IMG/VR virus record: IMGVR_UViG_3300042401_001180
Source: a virus
Taxonomy: Duplodnaviria > Heunggongvirae > Uroviricota > Caudoviricetes
Strand: one strand, 5' to 3'
Length of the DNA: 64,000 nt
The first letter of the stretch is position 1. The number at the start of each line of letters is the position of its first letter. This document shows positions 5,653 through 24,245 of the stretch, piece by piece. Made by a program: the position numbers and the translations under genes. Under the pieces are notes generated by a model. That model did no database searches. It saw only the letters and a list, made by a program, of their open reading frames with translations, and was not told the origin of the DNA.

Positions 5653-5955
5653 TTCAATAATTTTTATTTCACCTTCTTCATATTCAACATTGATTGAGGT
5701 TTCACTCATAACCAATTTTTGTTTCAAGTCCTCCTCAATTGTAAATTCATTTGGTCCCATTACCACTTTATGTCTTTTAGTCATTTTAGTGAATGGGGTT
5801 TGAAATAAACTTATTTGTTCGTCATTAAGACATTCAACCATACTTGGGAACATACCGTTTACGGTTATAATTGCTTTATCCCCTATTTTTACATTTTCGT
5901 CTATTGTTAGATATGGTTCGTCTTTTACTACGAATAGCTTAAATATTTGTCCCAT
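5650..5955 (-). CDS. hypothetical protein (101 aa)
   Basis: ORF. Confidence 0.45.
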   Translation of the reverse strand: MGQIFKLFVVKDEPYLTIDENVKIGDKAIITVNGMFPSMVECLNDEQISLFQTPFTKMTKRHKVVMGPNEFTIEEDLKQKLVMSETSINVEYEEGEIKIIE

Positions 5956-6337
5956 TTTTAAATTTTAATAATGTTTTTATTTCATCTGAATGGTTTTGAA
6001 CCTCAACTATTGGTGCCCAATTACCTTTATAAGTAATACCCCTTACCGGTTTATTATCAATCCAAACGTATTCTTCATCTTCAGAACATCTTGGTTTATC
6101 AGTTATAAGATCGTGGAATTTAAATCCGTGTTTCCACAACCAAGCAAGAGTCACACTCTTATCTTTATATTCTCTTGCAGTAAAAAAAACTATTTTATTT
6201 CCTTTATCATAAAGGGTGTTGATTTGTTCTTTAGATCCTTCGTAAGGTGTTGCGTCTTTATATAAGTGACTATCTTCATTTTTTATATCATCACATACCG
6301 TTCCGTCAATATCAATTAAATAAACTCTTTTTTTCAT
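5939..6337 (-). CDS. HAD-superfamily hydrolase-like protein
   Basis: N-terminal LIDIDGTV (DxDxT motif I), FFTAR motif II-like. Confidence 0.5.
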   Translation of the reverse strand: MKKRVYLIDIDGTVCDDIKNEDSHLYKDATPYEGSKEQINTLYDKGNKIVFFTAREYKDKSVTLAWLWKHGFKFHDLITDKPRCSEDEEYVWIDNKPVRGITYKGNWAPIVEVQNHSDEIKTLLKFKNGTNI

Positions 6338-6648
6338 ATACCTAATTTATTTTTATAGTTCATATCCAAAATGTAAGTCTTTAAGTTTTTAACTAAAGAT
6401 TCTGCATCACTTTTTTCATACATATTAGGATATCTGTCAGCCAATTGATTTGTATCTTCCATATCACGACAACTAGTTAATATATCCTGTAACATAGATT
6501 TTAACATATGTTCTTTATCGTAGTTATCTTCAACTTTTTTTTCTAATACTTGTCCTTCAAGTTCTTGAGTATAATCAATTAACTCTTCAATAGGACTTAA
6601 ATCCATTAAATGTTCATTACCTTTGAATATTTGTCTTATATTTTTCAT
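6334..6648 (-). CDS. hypothetical protein (104 aa)
   Basis: ORF with ATGA overlap to the downstream gene. Confidence 0.45.
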   Translation of the reverse strand: MKNIRQIFKGNEHLMDLSPIEELIDYTQELEGQVLEKKVEDNYDKEHMLKSMLQDILTSCRDMEDTNQLADRYPNMYEKSDAESLVKNLKTYILDMNYKNKLGI

Positions 6649-7223
6649 TGTAAGTAATTTAATATTTTTTCTTTAACTCCTGATTGTTTAATACCCTCAT
6701 TTGATTTTGGTGTCAATACAAAATTATCTATTGCCCATTCATCCTTCCACGGCTCACCAATCTTACCCATATTTAAATCATCTATAGAAACCCAATGAGT
6801 TATTTCAGGGTGATCGTGAAGATATTGTTTTATTTCAATGGTTCGTATTTGTTCCAACTCCCATCGTGGTGACCATATAAAATTACTATCATAATCTTTA
6901 CAGTTTTGTATGTTTGGTGTTAAAGCTATTGGTTTTTTAGATATTCCTTGTGATTCGTAGTAATCTCCAAGTTCTTCAAGTGTTGCATGTAATTTCCAAT
7001 CAGAGCTTACAACAATCTCAGCGCCTGTTTCTTCTAATATTTCATTAAGGACTTTAATCGCCTTTGTATCAAAATCATCAAATCGGACAAATACAGGTGC
7101 ATCTTTTTTTTCATTACTTGAATCGGGATTCGCACTACGGTACTTTGCCCATTTCTTTGTTCGTCCCCCCCAATTGTTGGAAAGAGCAATAACTCCGTCA
7201 TGGTCTAAAAATATGGCTTTCAT
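6645..7223 (-). CDS. putative HAD-like phosphatase
   Basis: FLDHDGVI (DxDxV motif I) and VVSSDWK. Weak assignment. Confidence 0.4.
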   Translation of the reverse strand: MKAIFLDHDGVIALSNNWGGRTKKWAKYRSANPDSSNEKKDAPVFVRFDDFDTKAIKVLNEILEETGAEIVVSSDWKLHATLEELGDYYESQGISKKPIALTPNIQNCKDYDSNFIWSPRWELEQIRTIEIKQYLHDHPEITHWVSIDDLNMGKIGEPWKDEWAIDNFVLTPKSNEGIKQSGVKEKILNYLQ

Positions 7224-8179: not shown

Positions 8180-8743
8180 TTAATATTTTACAACTTTAAC
8201 ACACCAGGGATTAAAAAAATTGTCTGTATCACATTTTTTAATTTCGTGATAAAAAGCATCGTAATATATATCACCATTTTTTATTTTAGAAAATAATGAG
8301 GGAGAATACATCTCACCATCAACTTCAACAACATCATTCAAAACCGAATGGTTTTCACATAATGTATAGTACCAACCTTTTTTATTTACAGTTTCTCCAG
8401 GTTCACCACAGATTTCACAAATAGTCCTACTTTCGTTATCCACCTCAATTATAATGTTTGTTGCCCCTTCAGGTAACCCATTAGTGTAAAAACAAAGTCC
8501 ACCAAATTTTTCTTTCACTTGTGTTATTTGTTTATCCCAACCAAGTTTAATTAAATCCTCAATTAATCTTTGGATTATTCCTAACCAACCGTTCCCGACA
8601 GAAAAGTACCCTCTACTTAGGATTGGTTTATCACCAATTCTATATCCATTTTCTAAACCACCTATAGATGTTAGAAAATCTTCAAACTCGGCATCTGTTT
8701 TATAATTCTGATTCATTTTGTTTTTTTCTTTCCGTTTTAACAA
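8180..8743 (-). CDS. hypothetical protein (187 aa; CxxC...C..H)
   Basis: ORF with CEICGEPG...CENH possible zinc site. Confidence 0.5.
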   Translation of the reverse strand: MLKRKEKNKMNQNYKTDAEFEDFLTSIGGLENGYRIGDKPILSRGYFSVGNGWLGIIQRLIEDLIKLGWDKQITQVKEKFGGLCFYTNGLPEGATNIIIEVDNESRTICEICGEPGETVNKKGWYYTLCENHSVLNDVVEVDGEMYSPSLFSKIKNGDIYYDAFYHEIKKCDTDNFFNPWCVKVVKY

Positions 8744-9131
8744 TAGTCAATGCATTTGTTAATGTCCAATAAGCATCCCAAAATCCACCTCTATCATCTA
8801 AGAAAATATTCGCATATATCTTACCATTTTTACCATATGTATGGTTCCACTCAGGATGCATTTCGTTTACTCCGTGAACAACAATACCTAACTCTTCTAC
8901 CTGTTGTTTTGCCTTTTCTAACTGAGGTTTGTTTCTTGCAGTATTAATCAAAAAGTAAATCCCCTCTTCTTGACATTCCAAAATCAAATCAACCATTTTT
9001 TTACAGTTGTCTTTTATTTCTTCATTGTAGGGTATTATCGTATCATCAAGATCACAACCAATTATAATCTTACCATTCTTTAACCATTCGGTTACCAACC
9101 TATTTACGTAAAAATTTGCGTGATGTCTCAT
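8700..9131 (-). CDS. HAD-superfamily hydrolase-like protein
   Basis: IIIGCDLDDTII (DxDxT), INTAR, IFLDDR motifs. Confidence 0.5.
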   Translation of the reverse strand: MRHHANFYVNRLVTEWLKNGKIIIGCDLDDTIIPYNEEIKDNCKKMVDLILECQEEGIYFLINTARNKPQLEKAKQQVEELGIVVHGVNEMHPEWNHTYGKNGKIYANIFLDDRGGFWDAYWTLTNALTIVKTERKKQNESEL

Positions 9132-9648: not shown

Positions 9649-10677
9649 TTATTTATTAAATCCCACTTTACCCGATCCTTTAATTGTTGGTGTTTTTTTC
9701 AAACCTTCAAGGTTATTGATTGTTTCTTCAAAAGTTCTACCCATAACAATAACCGAAATTACAACTTCTTTTAAGTGTGACAAAGACATTCCTTCAGTTT
9801 TTTTAATCCATTCTTCAATGTCAATGTTTTTTAAATCATCATCATTTAATTTATGTTGGATGTACGCTCTTCTGATATCTTCGTTTGGTAGTTCCACTTT
9901 ATACCTTCTATCAAAACGGGATGGTCTGTTTGTAATACGTTCCTGTAGTTTTTCAGGGTAATTGGTTGTTGCAATATAAACAACACCTTCAATTTGTTTA
10001 ACACCATCAAGGATGTTTAATAGTCTTGCCGTTTGGTATCTGTTTTCCCCCGCCAAAGAATCTATGTCCTCTAATAAAACTACTAATGGTCGGTTTGGTT
10101 CAACTTTTCTAAACGTTGCAATAAATGATGTGAATTTATCTACATCGTCTTCATCCTTAACGTTTATAACGATACCATCCTTTTCAATTAGTTGTTGTGA
10201 TATCAATTGTATAATACCTGATTTACCACACCCCGGCTCACCATACATTAAAATACCTCTTTTATGTATGTAGTTGTATTTTTTATAATTGTCAGCTCTA
10301 TTCCAAAAATTATCAATATCCTTTAAGATATCAGTAATTTCGTATGATGGTAAATGATATAACTCATCGGTTTTAAACGGTTGTTTCTTTAATGTGTGGG
10401 TTCCCATATTTGCATTCCAACCAATCTCATAAACACCAGCAGGTACTTTTGGTACTGTAGGATATGCTGGCGCGTACTCATCATTTTTTAGATTACTCCA
10501 ACAAGATGGAACGTCAACATCTTTTTTATCCTCATATTTTTCTGAATTTAATCTTTTACGAATAATTGGTTCATCCAAGCTTAAATCATCGTCCATAATT
10601 TCAATCGTTTCTTCAATATATTCTTCGCTCATATTGTTTTTTTTTAATATTTCTTTTAATTGTTTTTTCCAATCCAT
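9649..10677 (-). CDS. AAA+ ATPase
   Basis: Walker A GEPGCGKSG, Walker B VVLLEDID, sensor-1 TTN. Confidence 0.75.
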   Translation of the reverse strand: MDWKKQLKEILKKNNMSEEYIEETIEIMDDDLSLDEPIIRKRLNSEKYEDKKDVDVPSCWSNLKNDEYAPAYPTVPKVPAGVYEIGWNANMGTHTLKKQPFKTDELYHLPSYEITDILKDIDNFWNRADNYKKYNYIHKRGILMYGEPGCGKSGIIQLISQQLIEKDGIVINVKDEDDVDKFTSFIATFRKVEPNRPLVVLLEDIDSLAGENRYQTARLLNILDGVKQIEGVVYIATTNYPEKLQERITNRPSRFDRRYKVELPNEDIRRAYIQHKLNDDDLKNIDIEEWIKKTEGMSLSHLKEVVISVIVMGRTFEETINNLEGLKKTPTIKGSGKVGFNK

Positions 10678-11310: not shown

Positions 11311-11348
11311 AATAAAAAAAGGTGACTCTATCAATGAGAGTCACCAAC
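11311..11348 (-). terminator. rho-independent terminator with the stop codon of the RNA ligase gene embedded in the stem
   Basis: GGTGACTCtatcaatGAGAGTCACC. On the minus strand it is followed by TTTTTTTA. Confidence 0.6.
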
Positions 11349-12464
11349 ATTATTTTTTTCACCGTATATTAAATAATCCGGATTTATCACTTTTGACACT
11401 TTTCTACGGTCACCAGTTATGGCTTTAACAACAACACCTTCGTGTGGTACTTTAGTTCCTTCTATATTGTTATTGAACACATATTTATCTTGTTCTTCTT
11501 TATTCCAATTACCCTTGTATAACAACTCAACTTGTGGTAATTGAAGACAATTAAAATGTACAGTTTCATTTATGTATGGTTGGTATACTCCATCAACTTC
11601 AACATCAAACCCCGCAAATTTAACATCAGTTAAACCGTACTCGTAGTTTTTTTGTATTCCTGCACCATATATCTCACCGTATATTACTACACCTTCACTC
11701 AAACCAAATGGTTCGTAAGTGTCTTTTACGTGAGCCCACAACTTACCTCTTATGTCATAAGTGTTTGCCACAGTTTTCCATACATCAGTATCGTAAAACC
11801 CTTGTGAGTCGGAACCCTTCTCTACGTTATGAGAACCATAAACATATTCAAATGCCGCCCATTGATTTCCAAAGAAGATTTTAACACGATCCCACAATGA
11901 TAGTTTTTTCTTTCTAACTATTCCGTAACGAGTATTTGTTCCGTGTAACTTACGAGTTATAACTACCTCATCTTCCTCATTGAACATATCAGGTACATTC
12001 TTTTGGTTAGGGAACTTGTAGTAAACTTTGAAGTTAGGGTTTTGGTGGTATTTTACTTTACGTCCACCAACACTTAACTGAACGGTTTTAACTGGTGGTT
12101 CGTATTTAGTTATACCAAGTATTCCCATCATGTCATCGCCTTCATTAACGTTTTTCTCCAATGATTTTGGTTCCAAGTATTTGAATGGTATTAACAAACA
12201 TTCAGAATAAACTCCACGAAGTTTTACGGTTCTAACCCTTTGTCCTTTACGAAGGTAGTTAGTTACTTCCATCAAGTCAGATAATCCTTGTGGTATCACA
12301 GCATCTGTAGTTGCAACAACAACCTTATCACCAACTTGGTATTCACCTTTTTTGGTTATGGCGTTCCATCCACCAACAGTAACTATTTCTATTTTATCTG
12401 CGTTTGGTATTTCAACCACTGAACCTATTTTTCCTACGTATGCTACGCTATTTTGATTTTCCAT
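11331..12464 (-). CDS. ATP-dependent RNA ligase (Rnl2/DraRnl-like) with N-terminal OB-like extension
   Basis: Nucleotidyltransferase motif I KLHGTN (KxHGxN as in T4 Rnl2). Confidence 0.6.
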   Translation of the reverse strand: MENQNSVAYVGKIGSVVEIPNADKIEIVTVGGWNAITKKGEYQVGDKVVVATTDAVIPQGLSDLMEVTNYLRKGQRVRTVKLRGVYSECLLIPFKYLEPKSLEKNVNEGDDMMGILGITKYEPPVKTVQLSVGGRKVKYHQNPNFKVYYKFPNQKNVPDMFNEEDEVVITRKLHGTNTRYGIVRKKKLSLWDRVKIFFGNQWAAFEYVYGSHNVEKGSDSQGFYDTDVWKTVANTYDIRGKLWAHVKDTYEPFGLSEGVVIYGEIYGAGIQKNYEYGLTDVKFAGFDVEVDGVYQPYINETVHFNCLQLPQVELLYKGNWNKEEQDKYVFNNNIEGTKVPHEGVVVKAITGDRRKVSKVINPDYLIYGEKNNVGDSH

Positions 12465-12466
12465 TT

Positions 12467-12727
12467 TTATATATTTTCAAATTCTTCTTTTACTAAATCC
12501 ATTTCTTCTTTCAATCTCTCAAGTTCTTTAGTTAACATCTCCCTAATTGATCCTGTGTTATAAATATTAACTTCACCTTTACTTCGGAATTCTCCACCTC
12601 TTGAGTATGCAATTGTTGCTCCCAAAGAACAAGATTTAAGTGCGTATTCTAATTTAGATTTTTGTGTTTCCAACCTATCAAGGGTTTCTTTAACTTTTTT
12701 TGCTTTTTCAAATTTTTCTAATTCCAT
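12467..12727 (-). CDS. hypothetical coiled-coil protein (86 aa)
   Basis: ORF. Confidence 0.45.
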   Translation of the reverse strand: MELEKFEKAKKVKETLDRLETQKSKLEYALKSCSLGATIAYSRGGEFRSKGEVNIYNTGSIREMLTKELERLKEEMDLVKEEFENI

Positions 12728-12885
12728 CAGTCATTCATTTTTAAACTGGGTGTTAATAATAAAGCCCAAAGACAATGTCCGCTTTAAGTAAAGTAAATCG
12801 CGGTTCCTATCAATCCAAAGAACCCTAAATAAATCAAACCAATACCTAAATATTTCATGACACAAAGATATAAATTATTTTTTAA

Positions 12886-13407
12886 TTATTCAACATCATC
12901 TTCAAGATAATTTATTTTCATAGATCTTGGTTCAGTGAAGTCCCACTTCTTACTTTCAAACTCCGTAACCCATTCACTAACATCTTCTCTTGTCCAATGT
13001 GGTGCAAAAGAAGGACGATACTTAAATGGTAAATTTTTACTTTCTTCCCATTCATCAAGTCGTTGTGTTACATCTTCAATAAGGTTTTTAGTCTTAGTAT
13101 GTTTAATCCACTCTCTGTAATCATCCTCAGATTTAATATACATAACGTCACCATAATTTTCAAACTCCATTTCGGGAAATTCTAAGTTTGGGTTGTTGGT
13201 ATAGACATCCACGATTCCATTGTCTCCGTAATACGAATCACACAGTTCCCTTAAACCATATAAACTACTTGGTCTTTCTTCCCAGACACTACCGAACTGA
13301 CGGACAGAACAGATATACAAATACCCATCTTCATAAGAATTTATTTTATATTGAATTTTATTTCGTAATGAAATAAGTTCGTCCATTGTTAGTTTAGTTA
13401 AGTCCAT
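12886..13407 (-). CDS. hypothetical protein (173 aa)
   Basis: ORF. Confidence 0.5.
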   Translation of the reverse strand: MDLTKLTMDELISLRNKIQYKINSYEDGYLYICSVRQFGSVWEERPSSLYGLRELCDSYYGDNGIVDVYTNNPNLEFPEMEFENYGDVMYIKSEDDYREWIKHTKTKNLIEDVTQRLDEWEESKNLPFKYRPSFAPHWTREDVSEWVTEFESKKWDFTEPRSMKINYLEDDVE

Positions 13408-13408
13408 A

Positions 13409-13816
13409 TTATATACCTAAATGTTTTTTTGCGTTTTCTAAAAATCCTTCAATATTTCTTTTTCCAACTGGGTTCGCACTATGAACCAAATATTCTGGTA
13501 ATGGTTGGTTTTCATCTGCACAATATTCCACAAGAAATTTTGCACAGTCAAGTCCTGTCTTTTCTTTTATGTTATCATAATCCAAAGTTCCTTTGGTTGC
13601 GACATTTCTAAAATATTCATCCATTGCGGTATCACCCAGGTCGTGATCAAATGATACAAATTTAGGAACACCATTAATTTCAATGTATTGTACAAATTCA
13701 TCGTAGTTTCTTACAACATCCCAATCATTCTCCCAATAAAACTTATTATGTTTATCCGGAATCAATCCAATTGCATCCTTTGGAATTCTGATGTCGTCTA
13801 AAAAGAGTTTACTCAT
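13409..13816 (-). CDS. hypothetical protein (135 aa)
   Basis: ORF. Confidence 0.5.
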   Translation of the reverse strand: MSKLFLDDIRIPKDAIGLIPDKHNKFYWENDWDVVRNYDEFVQYIEINGVPKFVSFDHDLGDTAMDEYFRNVATKGTLDYDNIKEKTGLDCAKFLVEYCADENQPLPEYLVHSANPVGKRNIEGFLENAKKHLGI

Positions 13817-13821
13817 AATTA

Positions 13822-14280
13822 TTATTTTTCATTTGTATATTTTCTTAATAGTTTGAATATCTCTGTAATATCTGTGAAATCAGATGGTGGACTATCATTT
13901 CTACCAGGAAGAAACATTACAGTAAACCCGTGATTTCCTGCAAACCTTTCGGTTACTCTTTTACCATTTATTTCATCAAGGTAGATCCAAGGAAAGTTTC
14001 CTGATAGTTTTACATCAATTCCTATTTTTTTAAGTCTTTCAACAAACACTGCGAGTTTATCTGTACTTATTTTTGTGCTGTTTCTTGTTTCCATTGTATA
14101 TGTTCCGAATTTTGATTCTATTTTGTATTTTGGTATTGATATGACATCGTTGTACCATTTAAAATTATCTAAGTCTTCATCCTTCATTGTAACCAAAAGA
14201 CTTTGGTATTCCATACCTGTTTCATAATAGTTACTTACGAACCATTGGATTCTTTCTTCATATGTTAGTTCTGTTTTCAT
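13822..14280 (-). CDS. hypothetical protein (152 aa)
   Basis: ORF. A -7 box (TATCTTTGTGG) directly precedes the ATG. Confidence 0.5.
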   Translation of the reverse strand: MKTELTYEERIQWFVSNYYETGMEYQSLLVTMKDEDLDNFKWYNDVISIPKYKIESKFGTYTMETRNSTKISTDKLAVFVERLKKIGIDVKLSGNFPWIYLDEINGKRVTERFAGNHGFTVMFLPGRNDSPPSDFTDITEIFKLLRKYTNEK

Positions 14281-14292
14281 ACCACAAAGATA

Positions 14293-14496
14293 TTAATATT
14301 GTTTAATTACGTCCCCTCTTAAATAGATGTTACTAAACGTCACACCATTTACAGATTCAACACCTAGATGAACTTGTCTACCCTCAATTTTGGTAATCAC
14401 ACCAGAATCTTCTACAGATCCTGTAATTCTATTAAACACCTTAACATAGTCACCTACTTTGATGTCTCTTCCGTTTTTATCCGTTGTTGTTTCCAT
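14293..14496 (-). CDS. hypothetical protein (67 aa)
   Basis: ORF. A -7 box TATCTTTGTGAT precedes the ATG. Confidence 0.45.
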   Translation of the reverse strand: METTTDKNGRDIKVGDYVKVFNRITGSVEDSGVITKIEGRQVHLGVESVNGVTFSNIYLRGDVIKQY

Positions 14497-14523
14497 ATCA
14501 CAAAGATATGTAATGTTTTTAAA

Positions 14524-14727
14524 TTATTTACCTCTTCCGTCACCATCAATGTAAATTAATTTAACTTTTTCACCATCTTTTCCGTGAATGGTTAAAGTTG
14601 GGTAAGATCCATCTTCATTTCGTTTATTAATTTTATCTGTTGGCCAAATTTCATAACCATATTCCCAACATAACGAATCCAACTTGTCGATGAACTCATC
14701 CATTTCTTTAGACATTTCTACTTCCAT
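14524..14727 (-). CDS. hypothetical protein (67 aa)
   Basis: ORF. Confidence 0.45.
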   Translation of the reverse strand: MEVEMSKEMDEFIDKLDSLCWEYGYEIWPTDKINKRNEDGSYPTLTIHGKDGEKVKLIYIDGDGRGK

Positions 14728-14884
14728 AACATTCTAATTTTTTATCTTTAACATTCCACAAATCTTTTTTACCTTCCGTCATATGACAATTATGTTTCTT
14801 TCCGGTTCTATCGGCAAAATCAACAATCATATCGTTGTGACGATTACGAATAAAGTGAGGACATTCTTTACAGGGTTTTTTCAT
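14712..14884 (-). CDS. small Cys/His-rich protein (57 aa), not in ORF track
   Basis: Manual translation MKKPCKECPHFIRNRHNDMIVDFADRTGKKHNCHMTEGKKDLWNVKDKKLECYGSRNV. ATGA overlap with the upstream gene. Confidence 0.3.
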
Positions 14885-15125
14885 CAATCAACTAATATAA
14901 AATTTTCAGAGGTTAACAACTTCAAAACTTTTTTTTCGGATGTTGTATTTATTGCGAATCTTGTTGCGGTTTCGTTATTTCCTGGTTTTGAAAATATAAT
15001 TTGGAATTTTCTTTTGTTGCCGATGTAGTATGAACCTACGGTGCAATATTCTCCATCGGTATTAACAAATACTCCGTAAGATTTACATTTAAGTGCTTGA
15101 CTCAATGTTTTATATTCTGTGTTTA
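14884..15125 (-). CDS. hypothetical protein (start revised to METINTEY)
   Basis: The track ORF 14884..15237 has a terminator hairpin and a -7 box inside its N-terminus. The internal Met at 15125 directly follows the TACTTTTG box. Confidence 0.45.
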
Positions 15126-15162
15126 TTGTTTCCATACCACAAAAGTAAGAAATGTTTTTTAA

Positions 15163-15200
15163 TAAAACAAAAAATCCCTCCGTAAAGAAGGGATTTAATT
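15163..15200 (-). terminator. rho-independent terminator (minus strand)
   Basis: Minus strand AAATCCCTTCtttacGGAGGGATTT followed by TTTTGTTTT. Confidence 0.5.
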
Positions 15201-15242
15201 TATTTTTAAAAAATATCTCTTCTCTTATATTTTTCATTTTTT

Positions 15243-15539
15243 TTAATTTTTTAAAATTTCAACTAAATTACCGTCAGTAAACTTTGCGGTAAATTCAAAC
15301 CATTCTTTATCGATAAAAGTATAAAAATTAAGATACCCGTGATATTGTAATTTGGTTTTTTCATTAGATGTATATCTAAAATTTACCATTAATTCACCCT
15401 CATTTGTTATATAAACATCAGAAAGAGTGGAATCCAAACTTTTTGTTTGCCACCCTGGATTATCACCAACTTTTTCTTTTATTTCATCAGATATCGGTAA
15501 CATACCAGTATCAATGAATAAGTAATCAAACATTCCCAT
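15243..15539 (-). CDS. hypothetical protein (98 aa)
   Basis: ORF. Confidence 0.5.
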   Translation of the reverse strand: MGMFDYLFIDTGMLPISDEIKEKVGDNPGWQTKSLDSTLSDVYITNEGELMVNFRYTSNEKTKLQYHGYLNFYTFIDKEWFEFTAKFTDGNLVEILKN

Positions 15540-15554
15540 TTTATGATTTTTTTA

Positions 15555-16136
15555 TTAATCCCACCATCTTTCGATGTTGGATTCCATTAATTTGAACAAT
15601 AATCTTTGGCATCTTGCTTGGTTTTCGTGAGCAATCTCCATCGCTATTGTATGTTTATTATCCGAGTCGACTTCTTTACGTTTAAACATATTTAATTCAC
15701 CTGATAAAACCCTTTTATATTGTCTTGGGTATTTGGCAAAATATTCGTCGTAACGTTCAGACAATGTTCTATGTTTCCATTCTGAAAAACCCGGTTTATC
15801 ATCTATATCCTCAAACCAATTTTCACTTTCTTCATAGTCCATATATTCCATATGGTAAAAATCCTCTTGTTGCAAACGGATTAGTTTAACAACAAGTTTC
15901 ATACGTTCAGAGTCTCTTTTTGCTTCAGTATGGAAATCCCTATCTCCGATGTATTTTGCCTGAAATTCTATTTTCTTAGCCAATAATTCGTAAATATAAT
16001 GTTGATCCCAATCCCTATCTTTCCAAATAGTTGGTGCCCATCTCCATAGGTTTTTAACTCCTTTTGCGAAGTCTTTGTGGTAATATCTGGCTTCGAATCT
16101 CCACCATAAATAAATTTTATTAAACATATTTTTCAT
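15555..16136 (-). CDS. hypothetical protein (193 aa)
   Basis: ORF. Confidence 0.5.
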   Translation of the reverse strand: MKNMFNKIYLWWRFEARYYHKDFAKGVKNLWRWAPTIWKDRDWDQHYIYELLAKKIEFQAKYIGDRDFHTEAKRDSERMKLVVKLIRLQQEDFYHMEYMDYEESENWFEDIDDKPGFSEWKHRTLSERYDEYFAKYPRQYKRVLSGELNMFKRKEVDSDNKHTIAMEIAHENQARCQRLLFKLMESNIERWWD

Positions 16137-16242
16137 ATTAATTTTCTTTAAAAAACCACAGTGTCATTTTAACAAATAACACAATTAAAACTATTTTTAT
16201 TATTATATCCACAAAGATATGTATTTTTTTTTAAACTGACAA

Positions 16243-16608
16243 TTATTTTTTAATATAAATAGTATCAACAATTTCAAGACTAACAGGTACAATTCCTCTA
16301 CCAATAAAATTTAATTCTTGAGCAGCACCATACGATAAATCAATAATATGTTTAGATGTTTTTGGGAGTCTATCGTTAATTTTTACATACCTAACTGAGT
16401 CGTTAATAAGGTTGGTTATCTTAACTATGGTTCCGAATTTAAATGTTTTGTGTGCTGCAGTTAGACTATCTTTATGAAATCTTTCTCCTGATGCAGTTAG
16501 TCTACCTGTGTAGTTTTTACCGTAATACGTTGCGGTACCTTTGTCGATTTTAATGGGTGCAATAAATGATAAGGTTAATAACGATATAAATAATATAATT
16601 TTTCTCAT
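16243..16608 (-). CDS. secreted RlpA-like double-psi beta-barrel (DPBB) protein, putative lytic transglycosylase
   Basis: Signal peptide. GTATYYG...GRLTASGERF...LTAAHKT..FGT.VKI.N...V.VKINDRLP matches the RlpA/expansin DPBB signature. Confidence 0.7.
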   Translation of the reverse strand: MRKIILFISLLTLSFIAPIKIDKGTATYYGKNYTGRLTASGERFHKDSLTAAHKTFKFGTIVKITNLINDSVRYVKINDRLPKTSKHIIDLSYGAAQELNFIGRGIVPVSLEIVDTIYIKK

Positions 16609-16653
16609 AGCATTAAAATAAAAAATCCCTTACAAAAAGTAAAGGATCTTATA

Positions 16654-17907
16654 TTAACGTCTAAATCTGAATTCGGTTTCTATTTTTCTTTTACCGTGTT
16701 TTTTCTCCATTATCTTTTGGTGTAAGTCCCAATCAATAATTGATTCATTTGTTTGTTCTTTTTCGTCAGGAATAAGTGAATAAATTTTACCGAGTCTTTT
16801 AATTAGTTTTGTTGAAACATAATTAAATCTTTCACACTCATCAACAAAGAACTGTTCTTCTTTATTTTGATATCTAGCAAGGTGACTTAAAAACTTGTGT
16901 CTAACTTTTTGAAGTCCTTCGTCGTCGCCATTATCTTTTACCATATGACCCATACCTAACATTCTCATAAATCCAGCAATTTTACTATTACTATCCTCTG
17001 TCATTCTATCAAAAATATCTCTTTTAGAGTTTATTAAATTGACGTAAACCAAATTCATAATTGTTTTTATTTTTTCCTCCTCATCCATATTTTCATACGG
17101 TACACCAGCATGTTCCAATAAAGCATCAATTCTATCCATTTGTTCGTATAGTTTTTCAATTAAATTTTCATAACTAAAATCTCTAATTTCTTTTAGTTCT
17201 TTAATAACTTTATCATTTTCAAAAAAGTCTTTAAATTGTTCCCTTGTAATATTATTTAATTTCATTCTTGTTGCCATTTCAGTTGGTCTAACAAGGTTCT
17301 CAACATATTGGATGAAATAACTATATCTCATAAATTCATTAATAACAGGAATTCCGAAGTTTAACCCTGAACTTGAGTATGCTTGGTAATCAGCGTCTTT
17401 ACCTATCAAGTCAGTTGTCTTTTTTTGTTTATCAAACTTATGTTTAATTTCGTGAGCAATTACAGATATCAAATCCACTCTATCTCGTCTAAAAAAGTCA
17501 TATACCTCTTTAGCGTTCCAATCATCACCACTTGACACAAAACTTAACTGTAACTCAATAGTGTTGTCCGATTCTTGAATCTTCATTAATATTTTTTTAT
17601 CAAAATTAAATTTGTTTGCAACTCCAGCAGACGCCATAACTAATGGTCCGTCGTAGTCATCCATCTCGTTAATTTCAACAAACAATTCTAAATCATTTAT
17701 TTTATAATCGGATATTGTTAAATCTAAATTATCTTCAGTAAATGTTTGTCTTGTGTCGTAATCATCCATACCTTTTAAAAGGTTTAAGATTATTTCGTAT
17801 AGTTCTTCTGCAGATTCAATAATCCCTTCTGGAACACCAACAGCCTCACTTAATAGATTTTTTACTATTAAACTCATTTGGTTTTCGGTTATAATAATTT
17901 TTGCCAT
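16654..17907 (-). CDS. hypothetical protein with HExxH motif (417 aa)
   Basis: IAHEIKHKFD is a possible zinc metallopeptidase motif. N-terminus MAKIIITENQMSLIVKNLL belongs to the shared N-terminal motif family. Confidence 0.5.
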   Translation of the reverse strand: MAKIIITENQMSLIVKNLLSEAVGVPEGIIESAEELYEIILNLLKGMDDYDTRQTFTEDNLDLTISDYKINDLELFVEINEMDDYDGPLVMASAGVANKFNFDKKILMKIQESDNTIELQLSFVSSGDDWNAKEVYDFFRRDRVDLISVIAHEIKHKFDKQKKTTDLIGKDADYQAYSSSGLNFGIPVINEFMRYSYFIQYVENLVRPTEMATRMKLNNITREQFKDFFENDKVIKELKEIRDFSYENLIEKLYEQMDRIDALLEHAGVPYENMDEEEKIKTIMNLVYVNLINSKRDIFDRMTEDSNSKIAGFMRMLGMGHMVKDNGDDEGLQKVRHKFLSHLARYQNKEEQFFVDECERFNYVSTKLIKRLGKIYSLIPDEKEQTNESIIDWDLHQKIMEKKHGKRKIETEFRFRR

Positions 17908-18100
17908 ACATATAAATATATCGTAATATTTTTTTAAAAAAGTAGTATTTTTTCTACTTATAAGATATTTATTAATATGAGAAAAAAATTAAATAAAGAA
18001 GATAAACGAGTTAAAATTTCAATCACATTATCTCCAAATATTAATAAAAAAATGGAAGATAGTCTAATAAACAAGTCAAAATTAATTGAAAAACTATTAA

Positions 18101-18697
18101 TTGATTACTATGGAAACAAAATATAAAGTTTATATAATAAAGTCATTGGTTAATGATAAAATATATATTGGGTATACAAAACATTCATTAAAACATAGAT
18201 TATCTACGCATTTTAGAAATGCCAAAAAAAATTCAATGGTTAATAACAAATTTGCAAGAGCCATACTGAAATATGGTTTGGATAATTTTACTATTAACTT
18301 ACTTTATGAGTGTTCAGACAAAAATGATGCGTTAATAAAAGAAGTTTTTTTTATTAATCAATACGATTCATATAAATTAGGTTATAACTCAACAGTAGGG
18401 GGTGAAGTCGGTTCACCTAATAAAAACCACGCAGACTTTTCGGGTGAAAAAAACCCATTTTACGGTAAAAAACACGATTTAGAGACAAGGAAAAAAATAG
18501 GACAAAGAGAATATAAAACAGGTAAAGATCATATGTGGCATGGAGTTAAACATAAATCTTCATTCAAAGAGGGTGAGGAACACCCTCTCGCAATACAAAT
18601 AACGATTGGTGGTGTGAAGTATGGTTCAATATTACAAGCATGTAAAATACTAAACCTTAGTCGTTGTAAGGTAATTAAATTATCCGATAACCCCTAA
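18101..18697 (+). CDS. GIY-YIG homing endonuclease
   Basis: YKVYIIKS...IYIGYT GIY-YIG core with NUMOD-like NPFYGKKH. Lone plus-strand gene inside a minus-strand array. Confidence 0.7.
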   Translation: MITMETKYKVYIIKSLVNDKIYIGYTKHSLKHRLSTHFRNAKKNSMVNNKFARAILKYGLDNFTINLLYECSDKNDALIKEVFFINQYDSYKLGYNSTVGGEVGSPNKNHADFSGEKNPFYGKKHDLETRKKIGQREYKTGKDHMWHGVKHKSSFKEGEEHPLAIQITIGGVKYGSILQACKILNLSRCKVIKLSDNP

Positions 18698-19333
18698 CAT
18701 CCCATCTAAATGGTGATCATCATCTATATCTGAACGCAAATCTCGTTTATCCATTATTTTAATAATATCGGAAATACTGTATGGATCCATTCCGTTACCG
18801 TCAACACCCACATCCATTTTTTTACCATTACCGAATTTATTTTTATATCCTGAATGTATGTGCCCGTAAAGATGGATTACTCCTTTATTCATTCCATGCC
18901 AACTTTGAAGGGGGTAATGACAAAGTACGAAGTTTCTACCATTTATGTTAGCCTCCAAATAGTGTTGTACACTTAAAAATCGTCCTTGTACGTGGTCTCG
19001 GTTGTTCTCTATATGATGATCGTGATTCCCAAGTATCAAGTGAATGTTGTGACATACCAAACGCTCAAGGAAGATTCCAATGTTATCAAACCCACCAAAT
19101 GAAACATCACCCAACATTATTAGTGTATCGTCTTGCCCAACAACATTATTAATACCATCAATAAGTCGTTGATTCATTTCTTCTATAGTTTGAAAGTCAC
19201 GAGTAGAATCTACTGGTACCTCACCATCTTTTGTTCTCCAATTTGTCACACCGCGACAAATGTTTTTATGACCAAAATGTGTATCTGAGGTAATCCAAAC
19301 TTTTCCTGTTGTCAATAATTTTTTAAAACTCAT
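18680..19333 (-). CDS. calcineurin-like metallophosphoesterase
   Basis: DTHFGH, GDVSFGG, GNHDHH, GHIH motifs. Confidence 0.7.
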   Translation of the reverse strand: MSFKKLLTTGKVWITSDTHFGHKNICRGVTNWRTKDGEVPVDSTRDFQTIEEMNQRLIDGINNVVGQDDTLIMLGDVSFGGFDNIGIFLERLVCHNIHLILGNHDHHIENNRDHVQGRFLSVQHYLEANINGRNFVLCHYPLQSWHGMNKGVIHLYGHIHSGYKNKFGNGKKMDVGVDGNGMDPYSISDIIKIMDKRDLRSDIDDDHHLDGMLGVIG

Positions 19334-19749
19334 AATTTTATGTTAAAACGATTACGCATTTGTTCTAATTTTTCTTCAGGTACATTATGGACGTTTGTCC
19401 CTCCGTGCCGATTTTCCACCACAATTGTGAACACAGCATACCCATACTCTTTTGCTAATTTAAAGTATGGTTCCATCTCCCATTCTTGTGTGAAGGTATT
19501 AGCAACCGCAATTTCTCTATAAAACTGATCATTCACTAATGAATCCTTCATATAAGTTTCCACTGTATCTTGACAAAATTTATGAGCGTCTTTGATTTTA
19601 GAAGCATCAAATTTATATTCACCCGTTTCTTTATCGATAAAATATTTATCCGCCTCACAAACTAAAAAGTCGTGCCCAACAATTTTTTTTGCGAATGTTG
19701 ATTTTCCTGATCCGCTAACGCCTCTGATTATAAAAAGTATTTTTTCCAT
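19330..19749 (-). CDS. P-loop nucleotide/polynucleotide kinase-like protein
   Basis: Walker A GVSGSGKST, AAA_33/PNK-like size. ATGA overlap with the phosphoesterase gene. Confidence 0.55.
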   Translation of the reverse strand: MEKILFIIRGVSGSGKSTFAKKIVGHDFLVCEADKYFIDKETGEYKFDASKIKDAHKFCQDTVETYMKDSLVNDQFYREIAVANTFTQEWEMEPYFKLAKEYGYAVFTIVVENRHGGTNVHNVPEEKLEQMRNRFNIKL

Positions 19750-19772
19750 ATTACAAATATACTAATTTATTT

Positions 19773-21203
19773 TTAATTTTTATCTTCTTTAACTCTTTTT
19801 TCTATTAAAGCATTAACTTCATCTTGATGATACCATTCACTTCCTGACATCATAACTTTAACACCATTTTGTAACGCCACTTCCATTTTATTATCAAAAA
19901 ACTTCATAACATCAACGTGGTTGATTTCTTTAACACCATTTTGAATGGCGTCTTCAACATTATCCTGTCTCATATTAAAATTCCACCCTAAAACATCTTT
20001 CACTCCATTTTGAATGGTGTCCTCAATATTGAATAATTTCTGTTCCATTCCTGGATGGGTTTTCTTAACCCCATTTTGAATTGTGTCTTCAACATTTATA
20101 TCTCCCTCAAAATAATACGGATAACTTTCTTTCACTCCATTTTGAATGGTATCTTCAACGGTAATAGTTTGTTGATGCAAGGCGGATTTGGTGGACTTCA
20201 CCCCATTTTCAATGGTATTATTAATTTCTTTTTCCGTCACCTCTAATGAACCAAGACCTTTGATTTCTTTCACCCCATTTTGAATGGTATCCTCAACGCG
20301 CATCGAGTAAGACAATTTGTACAGGAGGGTGGACTTCACCCCATTTTGAATGGTATCTTCAACGTATTCATATCGGGACAGAATATTCTCTTTGGTATTC
20401 TTTACCCCTTCGTTTATGACTTCTTCGATAACACAAGAACCATCAACTTTTAGAGAACTTTCAGTATGTTTCACACCATTTTGAATGGTGTCTTCAACTA
20501 TTTCATTAATTGCAAAATGAGAAGCCTTGGTGTCCTTCACCCCATTTTGAATGGTGTCCTCAATATTGAATAATTTCTGTTCCATTCCTGGATGGGTTTT
20601 CTTAACCCCATTTTGAATGGTATCCTCAATAATAGGCCAACCCCTTCTTTCATCAGCAATGGTGTGTTTCACCCCATTTTGAATGGTATTCTCAACTAAT
20701 GTTGTTCGCCATCTTTGTCGTAGCGAGGTGGACTTCACCCCATTTTTAATGGTATTCTCAACCGGAAGAGGACGAATCATTGACAGTGGATGGGTGGACT
20801 TCACCCCATTTTGAATGGTATTCTCAACTGGATCGTTCATCAATAATTCAACCGCTTCGGTGGACTTCACCCCATTTTGAATGGTATTCTCAACCTTTGG
20901 TTTAAATAAAAATCTATTTTCAAACCACTTTTTAACGTATTCTGCGGTTTCATCATTATCCATACCAAATAACATCAACACATTATTGAATATATAATAG
21001 TTATACCACAATGTTCTATCCTTTGTGAATTCAATAGCCCATCTTTTTTCATCTGTGAAAATAAGCCACATTGATCCGTTATTATTATAAATGTCAGTCC
21101 CTTCAATCTCCTTATCAAGGGTATCAAAAATAAGTTTTTTTAAATTTTTCCGTTTTTGGGTACTCATAATGTCAAATGTATGTGATTTATTTAATATAAT
21201 CAA
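19773..21203 (-). CDS. tandem-repeat protein (16 x ~22-aa units with V-E-D/N-T-I-Q-N-G-V-K core)
   Basis: Protein shows 16 units, each with a constant decapeptide plus a 10-14 aa variable spacer. Two units are identical at both DNA and protein level. Confidence 0.6.
   Translation of the reverse strand: MIILNKSHTFDIMSTQKRKNLKKLIFDTLDKEIEGTDIYNNNGSMWLIFTDEKRWAIEFTKDRTLWYNYYIFNNVLMLFGMDNDETAEYVKKWFENRFLFKPKVENTIQNGVKSTEAVELLMNDPVENTIQNGVKSTHPLSMIRPLPVENTIKNGVKSTSLRQRWRTTLVENTIQNGVKHTIADERRGWPIIEDTIQNGVKKTHPGMEQKLFNIEDTIQNGVKDTKASHFAINEIVEDTIQNGVKHTESSLKVDGSCVIEEVINEGVKNTKENILSRYEYVEDTIQNGVKSTLLYKLSYSMRVEDTIQNGVKEIKGLGSLEVTEKEINNTIENGVKSTKSALHQQTITVEDTIQNGVKESYPYYFEGDINVEDTIQNGVKKTHPGMEQKLFNIEDTIQNGVKDVLGWNFNMRQDNVEDAIQNGVKEINHVDVMKFFDNKMEVALQNGVKVMMSGSEWYHQDEVNALIEKRVKEDKN
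19840..20900 (-). repeat. coding tandem repeat array (~66-84 nt period)
   Basis: cttcaccccattttgaatggtat(t/c)(c/t)tcaac recurs about 15 times on the plus strand. Confidence 0.6.
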
Positions 21204-21220
21204 AGTATTTATAATAAAAG

Positions 21221-21718
21221 ATGAAACACCTGATTAGAAAAATATTAAAAGAAGTGGAGGAAGAAAAATTAACAAGTCTTCAAGAAAACTTATTAGGTTA
21301 TATTTCAACCGTTGGTATTTTAGATACAATTAAAATGGTTGGTGATATTGATAATTTCAATAAAATATTACCAAGTTACTTCGACAAAAATAGTCACAAA
21401 ATAGATTTAATTAATGAACTCGTTAATAATATTAATCCTTATAATAATATATATTTTAATGATATAGGAGGAGATTTTTATTTAGATTCTGATGACGTTT
21501 ATGATAGTGGTGATTATGATAGTGGTGATGGACACACATTTGAAGAGTATATAATTAGTGTTGGTGATGGTTCTGTTAGGGTTAATACTTATGAATTTGA
21601 TGAAGATGGTAATATGTTTGATGACTCCGCCGGTTTCTATTTTTTACCACTTAAAAAGTTATCGGATGATTTATTAAATTTAGTTTTTGAATCCCTTGTT
21701 AGTTATTATTTATTATGA
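21221..21718 (+). CDS. hypothetical protein (165 aa) with MKHLIRKILKE N-terminal family motif
   Basis: ORF. Asp/Gly-rich acidic tail. Confidence 0.5.
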   Translation: MKHLIRKILKEVEEEKLTSLQENLLGYISTVGILDTIKMVGDIDNFNKILPSYFDKNSHKIDLINELVNNINPYNNIYFNDIGGDFYLDSDDVYDSGDYDSGDGHTFEEYIISVGDGSVRVNTYEFDEDGNMFDDSAGFYFLPLKKLSDDLLNLVFESLVSYYLL

Positions 21719-21737
21719 AAGAAATAATTATAAAAAT

Positions 21738-22310
21738 ATGAAAATAGTAATTACAGAAGAACAGTATAAAAAGATATTAGTAGAGAGTACGTTAAAGGAC
21801 ACACTGAAGGATTTAAAAATAAACACGGGTATTTTATTTACGTTCGGTACTGGTATTGGATCGTTTATTGGTCCTGTTGAAAGATTACTTTCAGGTTCAG
21901 GATTTTCAATGGATGAAAGGGATATCATTCTTTTAATTATTACGTCATTTGCACTTATTATAAAAGATAGTGAAGGTGTAACGTTATTAGAAAAAGTTAA
22001 AGAAAAGGGATTAATGCCAACACTAAAAGGTGTTATCAACTTTATAACAAATGTCAAGGATGTGATAAATGCTGTAGCAAAAAATTTAGTAGGTGTTACC
22101 TATTCTTTATTAGATATCTTAGGATTTACACTTCTTTTAAATCCAACAATGAAAATTATCGATGAAGTTATAAAAGATAATAATATTAGTTCTGATAACG
22201 TAGAAAGGTTACTATCGGGAGCAGCACTTGCCGTGATTGTCTATTCACTTAAAAGTGTATTTGGTAAACTTAAAGGTAAATTTAAAAAAGATGTAAATAA
22301 CGCCGACTAA
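21738..22310 (+). CDS. hypothetical protein (start at MKIVITEEQYKKIL), hydrophobic segments
   Basis: The track ORF 21687..22310 is trimmed to the internal Met that carries the family N-terminal motif. Confidence 0.45.
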   Translation: MKIVITEEQYKKILVESTLKDTLKDLKINTGILFTFGTGIGSFIGPVERLLSGSGFSMDERDIILLIITSFALIIKDSEGVTLLEKVKEKGLMPTLKGVINFITNVKDVINAVAKNLVGVTYSLLDILGFTLLLNPTMKIIDEVIKDNNISSDNVERLLSGAALAVIVYSLKSVFGKLKGKFKKDVNNAD

Positions 22311-23011
22311 TCAGCGTTATCTACAAACTCCAACTCATTTGTTTTTGGATCCCAATCAACAGTTATTGGTTTGTTTCGGAACTCATATCGTCCATTTAAC
22401 ACCGCCGCGTTAATGAAGTGAGTATTTCCATCAAACACATAACCATAACCTTCGTGGATGTGTCCAAATACGTGGATTTTAGGTTTAACTTCTTCAACAC
22501 GTTTCATTAGTTCTTCACAACCAACATTTATATTATTGTAAGGTACATAATCCAATTTACCAAATGGTGGTCCGTGAGTAATAAGGATATCAGTGTCAAC
22601 AGGAATCATATCCCATTTTTCTTTTATTTTTTCACCACGAGGAAGGTTGAATGCCCAATTATGAAACTCAGGTTGCCAAGGTGAGCCCCAAATTTTAATC
22701 ATATTGTCATAATCTTCACCAACCATCAGTAAGTCATCTTGAAGATACTCTATAGTTTTGTAACCGGTAAGAAGTCCACGAAGTTTTTGATTATCATCTT
22801 GGAATCCAAAGTCGTGATTTCCTGCAATAAAAACTTTAGTGTCGTAGTTGTTGATATTATCATACCACTTCATAAAATTTTCAATCTCAGTGATATAACC
22901 ACGACCAGTTAAATCTCCCGCATGAATAAGCATGTCACCCCCAGTCAAGAACCCACTAACTTTGTCGTGTTTGGTGTGAGTGTCGCTAATAAATGTGATA
23001 CGTTTTTTCAT
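22307..23011 (-). CDS. calcineurin-like metallophosphoesterase (second copy)
   Basis: SDTHTKHD, GDLTGRG, GNHDF, GHIHEGYG. A -7 box TATATTTGTA lies 4 nt upstream of the ATG. Confidence 0.7.
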   Translation of the reverse strand: MKKRITFISDTHTKHDKVSGFLTGGDMLIHAGDLTGRGYITEIENFMKWYDNINNYDTKVFIAGNHDFGFQDDNQKLRGLLTGYKTIEYLQDDLLMVGEDYDNMIKIWGSPWQPEFHNWAFNLPRGEKIKEKWDMIPVDTDILITHGPPFGKLDYVPYNNINVGCEELMKRVEEVKPKIHVFGHIHEGYGYVFDGNTHFINAAVLNGRYEFRNKPITVDWDPKTNELEFVDNAD

Positions 23012-23678: not shown

Positions 23679-24245
23679 TTAACTTAAATAATTTGACATA
23701 TTTTTAGCAGCAAGAAATGCATCTTCCATCGTTTCAATTAGTTTTGATCCTCTTAACTTAAATGGTATCACATAAGAAATTCCATCACCATCCATCCATT
23801 TTTTACCTAACTCATCTTCAGTTTCATAAAGTTCGTTAAATTTTATTTCCCATTCACTCCATTGTTCTTCATCGTAATCTTCTTTGACTGGTTTGTATTT
23901 TTCATCAAATAACCTATCACCAATTTTAAACATATTACCACCTCTATGTGTATAACCATACATTCCTTCAATTACGGGGTTGTCTGTTCCATATGTCTCA
24001 AATGTAATAACCGCAGCAACTCCGTGTGGGTAATTTTCATCAACCATCATTTGATTTTTAACATACCATCGTGCTTCGTCAATACTACCGATGTATACTC
24101 CATTAGGTGATAAAAATGAATTTTCTAATGTGTTTTCGTTTTTTGGTCCAAATGTGTGTGTTCCGATCTTTCCACCAGTTAATCTTTCAATTTCTTGGAT
24201 TTCTTCTTGTGTTATTTCTTTTCCTTTTTGTGGTTTACTTTTCAT
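23679..24245 (-). CDS. hypothetical protein (188 aa)
   Basis: ORF. Confidence 0.5.
   Translation of the reverse strand: MKSKPQKGKEITQEEIQEIERLTGGKIGTHTFGPKNENTLENSFLSPNGVYIGSIDEARWYVKNQMMVDENYPHGVAAVITFETYGTDNPVIEGMYGYTHRGGNMFKIGDRLFDEKYKPVKEDYDEEQWSEWEIKFNELYETEDELGKKWMDGDGISYVIPFKLRGSKLIETMEDAFLAAKNMSNYLS

Follow-up and report, generated by a model that had tools for sequence, protein, structure and literature searches.

Among the closest described counterparts of the genes considered here are two RNA-repair systems, the Pnkp and Rnl1 enzymes of phage T4 and the bacterial Pnkp/Hen1 system. Repair of tRNA by T4 Pnkp and Rnl1 counters the anticodon nuclease PrrC, and in T4 Pnkp the kinase is fused to a C-terminal HAD 3'-phosphatase. 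The bacterial Pnkp of Clostridium thermocellum is one trifunctional polypeptide, in which a kinase of the same clade is joined to a binuclear metallophosphoesterase of the lambda-phosphatase type and to an adenylyltransferase ligase. The study of jumbo phages by Iyer et al. 2021 reportedly builds on Burroughs and Aravind 2016. It catalogued the RNA-repair complements of these phages computationally, and its comparative genomics connects RNA ligases and Pnk with cREC and SAK-type HADs (PMC7824862). The components that it lists (RNA ligases, polynucleotide kinase, cRec, SAK-type HAD, occasional calcineurin-like phosphoesterases and many tRNAs) are also those of the viral DNA analysed here, a stretch of 64,000 nucleotides from a member of the Caudoviricetes (IMG/VR record IMGVR_UViG_3300042401_001180) that is referred to in its entirety as the window.

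Seven open reading frames (ORFs) of this window had been proposed, from the sequence alone, to form an RNA end-healing and sealing set that accompanies a tRNA island (hereafter the original prediction). All seven were present at their coordinates and on the minus strand, and matches to RNA_ligase, AAA_33, Metallophos and HAD profiles placed each in its predicted superfamily. Our analysis indicates that the core of this idea, a repair set of kinase, phosphoesterase and ligase, is supported, and we consider it reasonably probable that these genes, though dispersed, encode a conserved phage pathway for the healing and sealing of broken RNA. The ligase family, the comparison with Hen1, the inclusion of a second phosphoesterase and of two HAD hydrolases, and the link to the tRNA island did not hold in the form first given, and the three HAD genes all lie outside the span 11331-23011 in which they had been counted.

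The window set follows the same logic as T4, with a 5' kinase, 3' phosphate removal and an ATP-dependent ligase, and its kinase shares both the fold and the catalytic Asp of the T4 Pnk kinase domain. It differs from T4 in that the kinase is a stand-alone protein of 139 amino acids (aa), the ligase belongs to Rnl5 instead of Rnl1, and the proposed agents of 3'-end healing are a metallophosphoesterase, cREC and a SAK-type HAD. The combination of kinase, binuclear metallophosphoesterase and adenylyltransferase ligase is that of bacterial Pnkp, here divided among three separate polypeptides and with a phosphoesterase of the aq_1665 type in place of the lambda-phosphatase type. The ORFs scanned in the window included no Hen1-like methyltransferase, and a match to TIGR04075 reached only 5.7e-3. 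The resemblance to T4 Pnk and Rnl or to Pnkp/Hen1 suggested in the original prediction is therefore one of logic and not of architecture, as the window has no HAD fusion, no trifunctional Pnkp, no Hen1 among the scanned ORFs and an Rnl5 ligase. The genes that carry the argument are as follows.

19330-19749, minus strand: stand-alone P-loop kinase of the polynucleotide-kinase clade, 139 aa (AAA_33, 1.3e-10; P-loop GSGKST)
18680-19333, minus strand: aq_1665-type binuclear metallophosphoesterase, 217 aa (Metallophos, 1.1e-4; phrog_547, 6e-48)
13409-13816, minus strand: cREC_REC protein with a divergent receiver fold, 135 aa (PF20274, 1.8e-23)
11331-12464, minus strand: Rnl5-type ATP-dependent RNA ligase, 377 aa (PF21189 and PF09414; TIGR02306; NgrRnl profile)
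6645-7223, minus strand: HAD_SAK_2 phosphatase, a 'Swiss Army Knife' RNA-repair HAD, 192 aa (PF18143, 3.4e-19)

Kinase and phosphoesterase

Gene structure, domain content, conserved residues and linkage were shown directly and are described first. The 139-aa protein comprises the kinase domain only, the HAD genes being separate and 10-13 kb away. A profile built from 47 homologues, in which R9, G10, G15, K16 and D34 are invariant, identified T4 Pnk (1ly1) as the first match in the PDB (3.3e-8), with the Cth Pnkp kinase and Pnkp1 next, and D34, the putative general base of the phage enzyme, aligned to D35, the general base of T4 Pnk. The AF2 model of the kinase (pLDDT 92) likewise returned T4 Pnk 1ly1 (TM 0.70) and the Cth Pnkp kinase 4gp6 (TM 0.71) as the top Foldseek matches. 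Longer homologues that are 45-52% identical bear RNA_lig_T4_1 (Rnl1-type), CNPase or HD domains. Profile, fold and fusion partners agree in placing the kinase in the polynucleotide-kinase clade. The original prediction had named a dNMP kinase as the identity that would count against it; this identity was ruled out, since no NMP or dNMP kinase outranked T4 Pnk, Cth Pnkp and the other polynucleotide kinases in sequence or fold. We regard the protein as a candidate RNA 5'-OH kinase. It belongs to an abundant family, with 6669 metagenome matches at 90% clustering and 7992 representatives at 50%, most of them stand-alone proteins of about 135 aa.

The stop codon of the kinase gene overlaps the start codon of the phosphoesterase gene by ATGA, as the original prediction had noted, and the two genes are probably translationally coupled. 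The metal-binding and catalytic motifs of a binuclear metallophosphoesterase (DxH, GD, GNH[DE], H and GHxH) are all invariant in seven homologues of the 217-aa protein, the invariant residues being D17, H19, D76, N103, H104, H139, H158 and H160. A direct PDB search with the 217-aa sequence returned nothing, and it was the profile alone that matched Aquifex aq_1665 (1xm7; 6.1e-17), the nearest solved relative and a structural-genomics protein without known function. With aq_1665 as the nearest relative, a Pnkp-type (lambda-phosphatase-like) identity was ruled out. The enzyme is a candidate 2',3'-cyclic phosphodiesterase and 3'-phosphatase that may act in the healing of RNA 3' ends.

The surroundings of this gene pair vary among related phages. 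A GIY-YIG and NUMOD3 homing-endonuclease gene (18101-18697, plus strand) is convergent to the phosphoesterase gene, whose 3' end it overlaps by 18 nucleotides. It is absent from relatives L005-L008, and in many other relatives (e.g. L025, 5844-6797) an inserted segment of about 1 kb instead separates the kinase gene from that of the phosphoesterase. On the other side of the kinase gene, a 476-aa protein (19773-21203, minus strand) without a family match contains about 15 repeats of the 'VEDTIQNGVK' type separated by variable linkers, and its gene is shorter or missing at the same position in near-identical contigs (a 188-aa gene in L001).

RNA ligase

The ligase had been described as Rnl2-type, with KLHGTN as motif I. 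The assignment as an RNA ligase and motif I itself, with lysine 172, were borne out, and the Rnl2 type was replaced by Rnl5 on the evidence of PF21189, TIGR02306 and NgrRnl. In Pfam, the protein has the N-terminal OB domain PF21189 (PHA02142; residues 8-93, 1.3e-14) followed by RNA_ligase PF09414 (residues 165-359, 1.6e-13). TIGR02306 (DRB0094 family) covers its full length at 1.5e-37, with a score of 129.2 bits against an equivalog cutoff of 151.15, and we take the ligase to be a divergent member of this family and not a TIGR02306 equivalog. TIGR02307 (Rnl2) matched only 35 residues (257-291; 1e-4). A ligase profile built from six diverse phage homologues matched Naegleria NgrRnl (5cot) at 1.6e-53 over residues 3-339 of 340, in comparison to 3.9e-6 for T4 Rnl2, where the match was confined to the nucleotidyltransferase core. 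An Rnl2 identity was ruled out by the N-terminal OB domain, the partial TIGR02307 and T4 Rnl2 matches and the absence of the Rnl2 C-terminal domain.

The original prediction had also been open to the objection that nucleotidyltransferase motifs beyond motif I might be lacking. On alignment, motifs III, IV and V were all present: K172 (KLHGTN, motif I), G263-E264 (III), E342-G343-x-V345 (IV) and K358 (V) are invariant in the six diverse homologues, and the catalytic residues align with K170, E227, E312 and K326 of NgrRnl. Past motif V the protein has 19 more residues and no further domain. These features place the ligase in the Rnl5 family of DraRnl and NgrRnl, with which it shares the same plan of a signature N-terminal OB domain, an adenylyltransferase domain and nothing past motif V. 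It is only about 25% identical to NgrRnl, from which it also differs by an insertion of about 25 residues after motif I that is common to mycobacteriophage ligases, and its genomic partners (kinase, phosphoesterase, cREC) are other than those of the DraRnl operon. The Rnl5 family comprises nick-sealing RNA ligases of bacteria, phages, eukaryotes and archaea (PMC5397189). An Rnl1 ligase was searched for in the window and none was found.

cREC and HAD_SAK

The cREC gene, which was overlooked in the original prediction, lies two small genes upstream of the ligase. Its product scores above the Pfam gathering threshold and has a receiver fold and the conserved acidic residues of the family, with D7, D8, D57, H58, D59, H112, S113 and N115 invariant, and a profile search for homologues found stand-alone proteins only and no domain fusions. 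Those who defined the family predicted that cREC opens 2',3'-cyclic phosphate ends or cyclic ADP-ribose, and its linkage to RNA ligases has been reported (PMC7824862). In the window this linkage takes the form of a same-strand block from cREC to the ligase.

The HAD_SAK_2 protein scored 70 bits against a cutoff of 27.5 and has a DHDGV motif I within the N-terminal sequence FLDHDGV. Its family membership makes it a candidate for an alternative 3'-phosphatase. Three HAD-like hydrolases had been included in the repair set by the original prediction; the HAD fold and a DxD motif I were found in all three, and the protein at 6645-7223 is the only one that belongs to an RNA-repair family.

Linkage in other phages and viral contigs

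The kinase profile was used to retrieve 80 IMG/VR loci that carry the kinase (56-90% identity), of which 43 have at least 5 kb of sequence on both sides. A phosphoesterase gene was present in 62 of the 80 kinase loci, with a gap of no more than 1.5 kb in 60, and an Rnl1- or Rnl5-type ligase was present in 30 of the 43 loci with long flanks, where only 3 had no partner gene at all. The commonest ligase partner of the pair was Rnl1-type (23/80 loci). At least five gene orders were recorded in the survey, among them phosphoesterase-kinase-Rnl5 (7 loci) and phosphoesterase-kinase-Rnl1 (12 loci). In L065, a distant contig, cREC, phosphoesterase, kinase and Rnl1 lie within about 4 kb.

HAD_SAK was found in 8 of the 80 kinase loci (L080, L081, L135, L137, L152, L153, L146 and L091), and all eight lacked the phosphoesterase. 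Because the two never share a survey locus, this result suggests that HAD_SAK and the aq_1665-type phosphoesterase substitute for each other at the same step. The window phage itself has both, 12 kb apart.

Isolated phages show the same association. The kinase homologues of Vibrio phage VPG01 (T5-like), rV5-like Pr121LW, phi92 and Aeromonas phiA009 are 38-52% identical to the window kinase and stand beside Rnl1-type ligases, with a phosphoesterase homologue (29-39% identical in alignment) within about 1.5 kb of the kinase. Rnl1, kinase (47% identical) and phosphoesterase occur together in VPG01 and again in Pr121LW, where tRNAs are about 3 kb away, and gp097, gp096 and gp095 of phi92 have the same arrangement. 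These clusters are compact and have a short Rnl1-type ligase adjoining the kinase and phosphoesterase genes, in contrast to the window phage, whose Rnl5 ligase lies 7 kb off and beside cREC.

Within the lineage of the window phage, gene order is conserved as kinase, phosphoesterase and p414, then p152, cREC, p173, p86 and Rnl5, followed by AAA, HAD143, HAD_SAK and HAD132. Such conservation could be explained by shared descent alone, and the linkage across lineages is the stronger evidence for a functional unit. This distinction bears on whether the genes belong together at all, as they could instead be unrelated housekeeping enzymes in a shared early-gene block: a kinase of nucleotides or small molecules, nucleotidases (the HADs and metallophosphoesterases) and a ligase that serves some other purpose. 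The genes are indeed scattered over 17 kb among many genes with no assigned function, two of the HADs are generic, and conserved order in one lineage is what descent would produce. We nevertheless consider this very unlikely, since the linkage persists through several different rearrangements and the exchange of one ligase family for another in unrelated phages, the nearest relatives of the kinase in sequence and fold are polynucleotide kinases and not NMP or dNMP kinases, and RNA ligase and CNPase domains are found fused to the kinase.

Second phosphoesterase and remaining HAD hydrolases

The other enzymes that had been counted in the repair set are the following.

22307-23011, minus strand: MPPED2-like metallophosphoesterase, 234 aa (Metallophos, 2.3e-16)
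8700-9131, minus strand: small generic HAD phosphatase, BT0820-like, 143 aa (family and PDB matches)
5939-6337, minus strand: small generic HAD phosphatase, 132 aa (weak Acid_phosphat_B match; HAD_PNKP below cutoff)

An RNA-repair link of the two small HAD proteins is not supported; the best PDB match of the 132-aa protein was 1xpj, a capsule-phosphatase-like entry (1.8e-3). The 234-aa protein is a Metallophos protein as predicted, and its place in the repair set is doubtful: it matched mammalian MPPED2 (3rl4) at 3.1e-49 over residues 4-220 of 234, and the neighbours of its gene vary among related phages. On this likeness, a role as a cyclic-nucleotide phosphodiesterase is as likely for it as one in RNA end healing. 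Tad6, a Thoeris inhibitor, has a homologue encoded 0.7 kb from it (23679-24245, minus strand; PF25188, 9.1e-14), and the two genes may form a small anti-defence cluster.

These matches can be extended to an interpretation in which cREC, the MPPED2-like protein and perhaps the aq_1665-type enzyme would degrade immune signals derived from cyclic nucleotides or ADP-ribose (CBASS, Pycsar, Thoeris), the ligase and kinase being functionally separate. In addition to the match to cyclic-nucleotide phosphodiesterase-like MPPED2 and the proximity of Tad6, it would agree with the proposal of cyclic ADP-ribose beside 2',3'-cyclic ends as a cREC substrate (PMC7824862) and with the many viral loci that have cREC and no Rnl5 within 10 kb. 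Against it stand the position of the aq_1665-type enzyme, next to the kinase in 60 of the 80 loci and with an ATGA overlap in the window, and the tight cREC-phosphoesterase-kinase-ligase clusters of independent lineages (L065, L119). As an explanation of the whole set we find it quite unlikely, and it is most plausible for the MPPED2-like gene alone.

Proposed pathway and its substrate

We infer every enzymatic step, and tRNA as the substrate, from family membership. A host ribonuclease would cut RNA, most plausibly host or phage tRNA through an anticodon nuclease, and leave a 2',3'-cyclic phosphate and a 5'-OH. The 3' end would then be converted to a 2',3'-diol, for which cREC is the candidate to open the cyclic phosphate and the aq_1665-type metallophosphoesterase or HAD_SAK the candidate to remove the phosphate. 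The 139-aa Pnk-clade kinase would phosphorylate the 5'-OH using its P-loop, with D34 as general base, and Rnl5, adenylylated on K172, would transfer AMP to the 5'-phosphate and seal the break. The fold of the RNA would hold the two ends together as a nick for Rnl5.

The main points that weigh against this pathway arise from the ligase. Characterised Rnl5 enzymes carry out Mn2+-dependent sealing of 3'-OH/5'-PO4 duplex nicks with ribonucleotides on the 3'-OH side, and DraRnl and NgrRnl seal only such nicks; genetic evidence connects DraRnl with recovery from DNA damage and irradiation, its deletion delaying genome reassembly after irradiation; and the physiological role of the family has been termed 'uncharted' (PMC5397189). 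A broken tRNA must therefore present a nick to an enzyme of this type, or the substrate could include DNA, which is the main caveat to the proposed pathway. If so, the genes would repair nicks in DNA or RNA:DNA hybrids and not tRNA, with Rnl5 sealing duplex nicks that have a ribonucleotide 3' side (primer remnants, embedded ribonucleotides) and the kinase and phosphoesterase cleaning the 5'-OH and 3'-phosphate ends of phage DNA cut by host nucleases. Enzymes of the T4 Pnk type act on DNA ends too, and thymidylate synthase and other DNA-metabolism genes are found in the same region. We judge this alternative unlikely, as the kinase-phosphoesterase pair is joined most often to Rnl1, whose founding enzyme repairs tRNA anticodon loops, and CNPase and Rnl1 domains occur as fusion partners of kinase homologues. 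Compact clusters that stand directly after tRNA arrays, and the definition of cREC and HAD_SAK as families by their RNA-repair contexts, are further arguments against it.

The remaining points against RNA repair concern position, enzymology and sampling. The tRNA island of the window is located as follows.

44369-55208, minus strand: tRNA island with 23 tRNA genes and an SmpB gene (ARAGORN and Rfam)

It is on the same strand as the repair genes; the nearest of the genes listed in the original prediction is 21 kb away and the ligase 32 kb. The ligase in turn lies 7 kb from the kinase pair, and about 12 small, unrelated genes stand between them. Of the 43 survey loci scanned for tRNAs, only 10 have one within 8 kb, and this count, as with the others from the survey, is uncorrected for shared ancestry among contigs. 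R38 of T4 Pnk is replaced by F37 in the phage kinase, so the substrate contacts differ. In the literature, no assayed activity was found for the kinase clade, the aq_1665-type phosphoesterase family or cREC.

The claim that the repair set accompanies the tRNA island consequently reduces, in the window, to co-residence at 21-32 kb, although compact versions elsewhere do adjoin tRNA arrays. Phosphoesterase-kinase-Rnl5 clusters stand directly after 22 tRNAs in L096 and after 23 tRNAs and a tmRNA in L099, and Rnl5-type ligases lie beside tRNA arrays in CcrColossus and in Microbacterium phage A3Wally. The number of tRNA genes, originally given as more than 24, is 23 as the union of ARAGORN (21) and Rfam (21).

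Two tRNAs were called by ARAGORN only, a 94-nucleotide tRNA-Ile(TAT) (46702-46795, minus strand) and a tRNA-Pro (54384-54460), and two by Rfam only, of 100 nucleotides (45888-45987, minus strand) and 72 nucleotides (51925-51996, minus strand); the long ones found by a single tool may contain introns or be degenerate. Inside the island are the phage SmpB gene (51407-51820, minus strand; PF01668, 9.8e-39) and, among the tRNA genes, a gene for an RNaseH_like protein (52002-52457, minus strand; PF04308, 2.6e-25). Neither ARAGORN nor Rfam found a tmRNA in the window, and the related viral contig L099 has its tmRNA (814-1189) adjoining its tRNA array. About 4 kb past the island is a full-length GOLLD RNA (59175-59578, minus strand; RF02032, all 416 model positions covered, 323 bits where the gathering score is 150).

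Neighbouring genes and phage context

The same-strand neighbours of the ligase and of the kinase-phosphoesterase pair were mapped as follows.

16654-17907, minus strand: 417-aa protein with a HEIKH (HExxH) motif, no Pfam or PHROG family
13822-14280, minus strand: 152-aa protein, phrog_38683, conserved directly upstream of cREC
12886-13407, minus strand: 173-aa protein between cREC and the ligase, function not assigned, present in most related loci
12467-12727, minus strand: 86-aa coiled-coil-like protein, function not assigned, no Pfam or PHROG match
11321-11345, minus strand: terminator-like hairpin and T-run overlapping the last ligase codons (terminator scan)

Pfam and PHROG scans of p86, p173, p152 and p414 assigned no function. 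The stop codon of the 86-aa gene is separated by two bases from the start codon of the ligase, and the two genes are kept adjoining in related phages. The hairpin at 11345-11321 is the probable end of a cREC-to-ligase transcription unit. Throughout this phage lineage the 417-aa gene immediately follows that of the phosphoesterase, and its product may be an unrecognised partner or a metalloprotease; a terminator-like hairpin after it (16650-16622) closes the same-strand block of kinase, phosphoesterase and 417-aa gene. From this layout, each of the two blocks (kinase to 417-aa gene; cREC to ligase) appears to be a single transcription unit. Between positions 5000 and 24500, 19 terminator-like sites were found in comparison to 7.3 expected. 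The sigma-70 promoter scan gave 99 sites against 105 expected; the host may be a member of the Bacteroidota with other promoters.

As a whole the repair genes are non-contiguous: they are scattered across 17 kb and interspersed with small genes unrelated to them, more than 20 in number. Downstream of the ligase is an AAA+ ATPase gene (9649-10677, minus strand; PF00004, 7.7e-17), which is conserved at a distance of 1-2 kb in most related phages that have enough sequence on that side. The phage, which also encodes the receiver-fold cREC, has genes for two histidine-kinase-like proteins, one with two PAS domains and HATPase_c (41720-43339, minus strand) and one with HATPase_c only (39679-41124, minus strand), which is unusual for a phage.

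The G+C content of the window is 31%, and a megablast search of the region against the phage collection gave no near-identical DNA match; the phage is not one of those catalogued by Iyer et al. The gene content is the same as that of a 20-kb stretch retrieved from a 270.5-kb JGI metagenome contig, and the window is therefore from a large uncultured phage. The nearest isolate match for one of its genes is in a Baltic Flavobacterium phage (48.7% identity).

Conclusions

The idea of phage RNA repair by such genes is already present in the comparative-genomics literature, and the window adds no new principle to it; its value lies in an abundant, syntenically conserved example and in the co-occurrence data. 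As far as was found, the tight pairing of the kinase with an aq_1665-type phosphoesterase, the substitution between phosphoesterase and HAD_SAK and the interchange of Rnl1 and Rnl5 beside the pair are absent from PMC7824862.

A stronger and more specific proposal is that the kinase, the aq_1665-type phosphoesterase, cREC and Rnl5 make up a tRNA-repair pathway of four enzymes, biochemically uncharacterised and widely distributed among environmental phages, in which cREC would represent a new, receiver-fold class of 2',3'-cyclic phosphodiesterase and viral Rnl5 ligases would re-seal tRNAs cut by host defence nucleases. We put this forward tentatively, as a possibility that is more doubtful than probable. 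An abundant kinase-phosphoesterase pair with an interchangeable ligase partner is in any case a good target for biochemistry. If the healing and sealing pathway works as outlined above, it would provide a testable function for three uncharacterised families (the abundant Pnk-clade kinase of about 135 aa, the aq_1665-type phosphoesterases and cREC) and would offer a physiological role for Rnl5 ligases. It would also give large phages a further route, beside the tRNAs that they encode themselves, by which to resist host defences that cleave tRNA.

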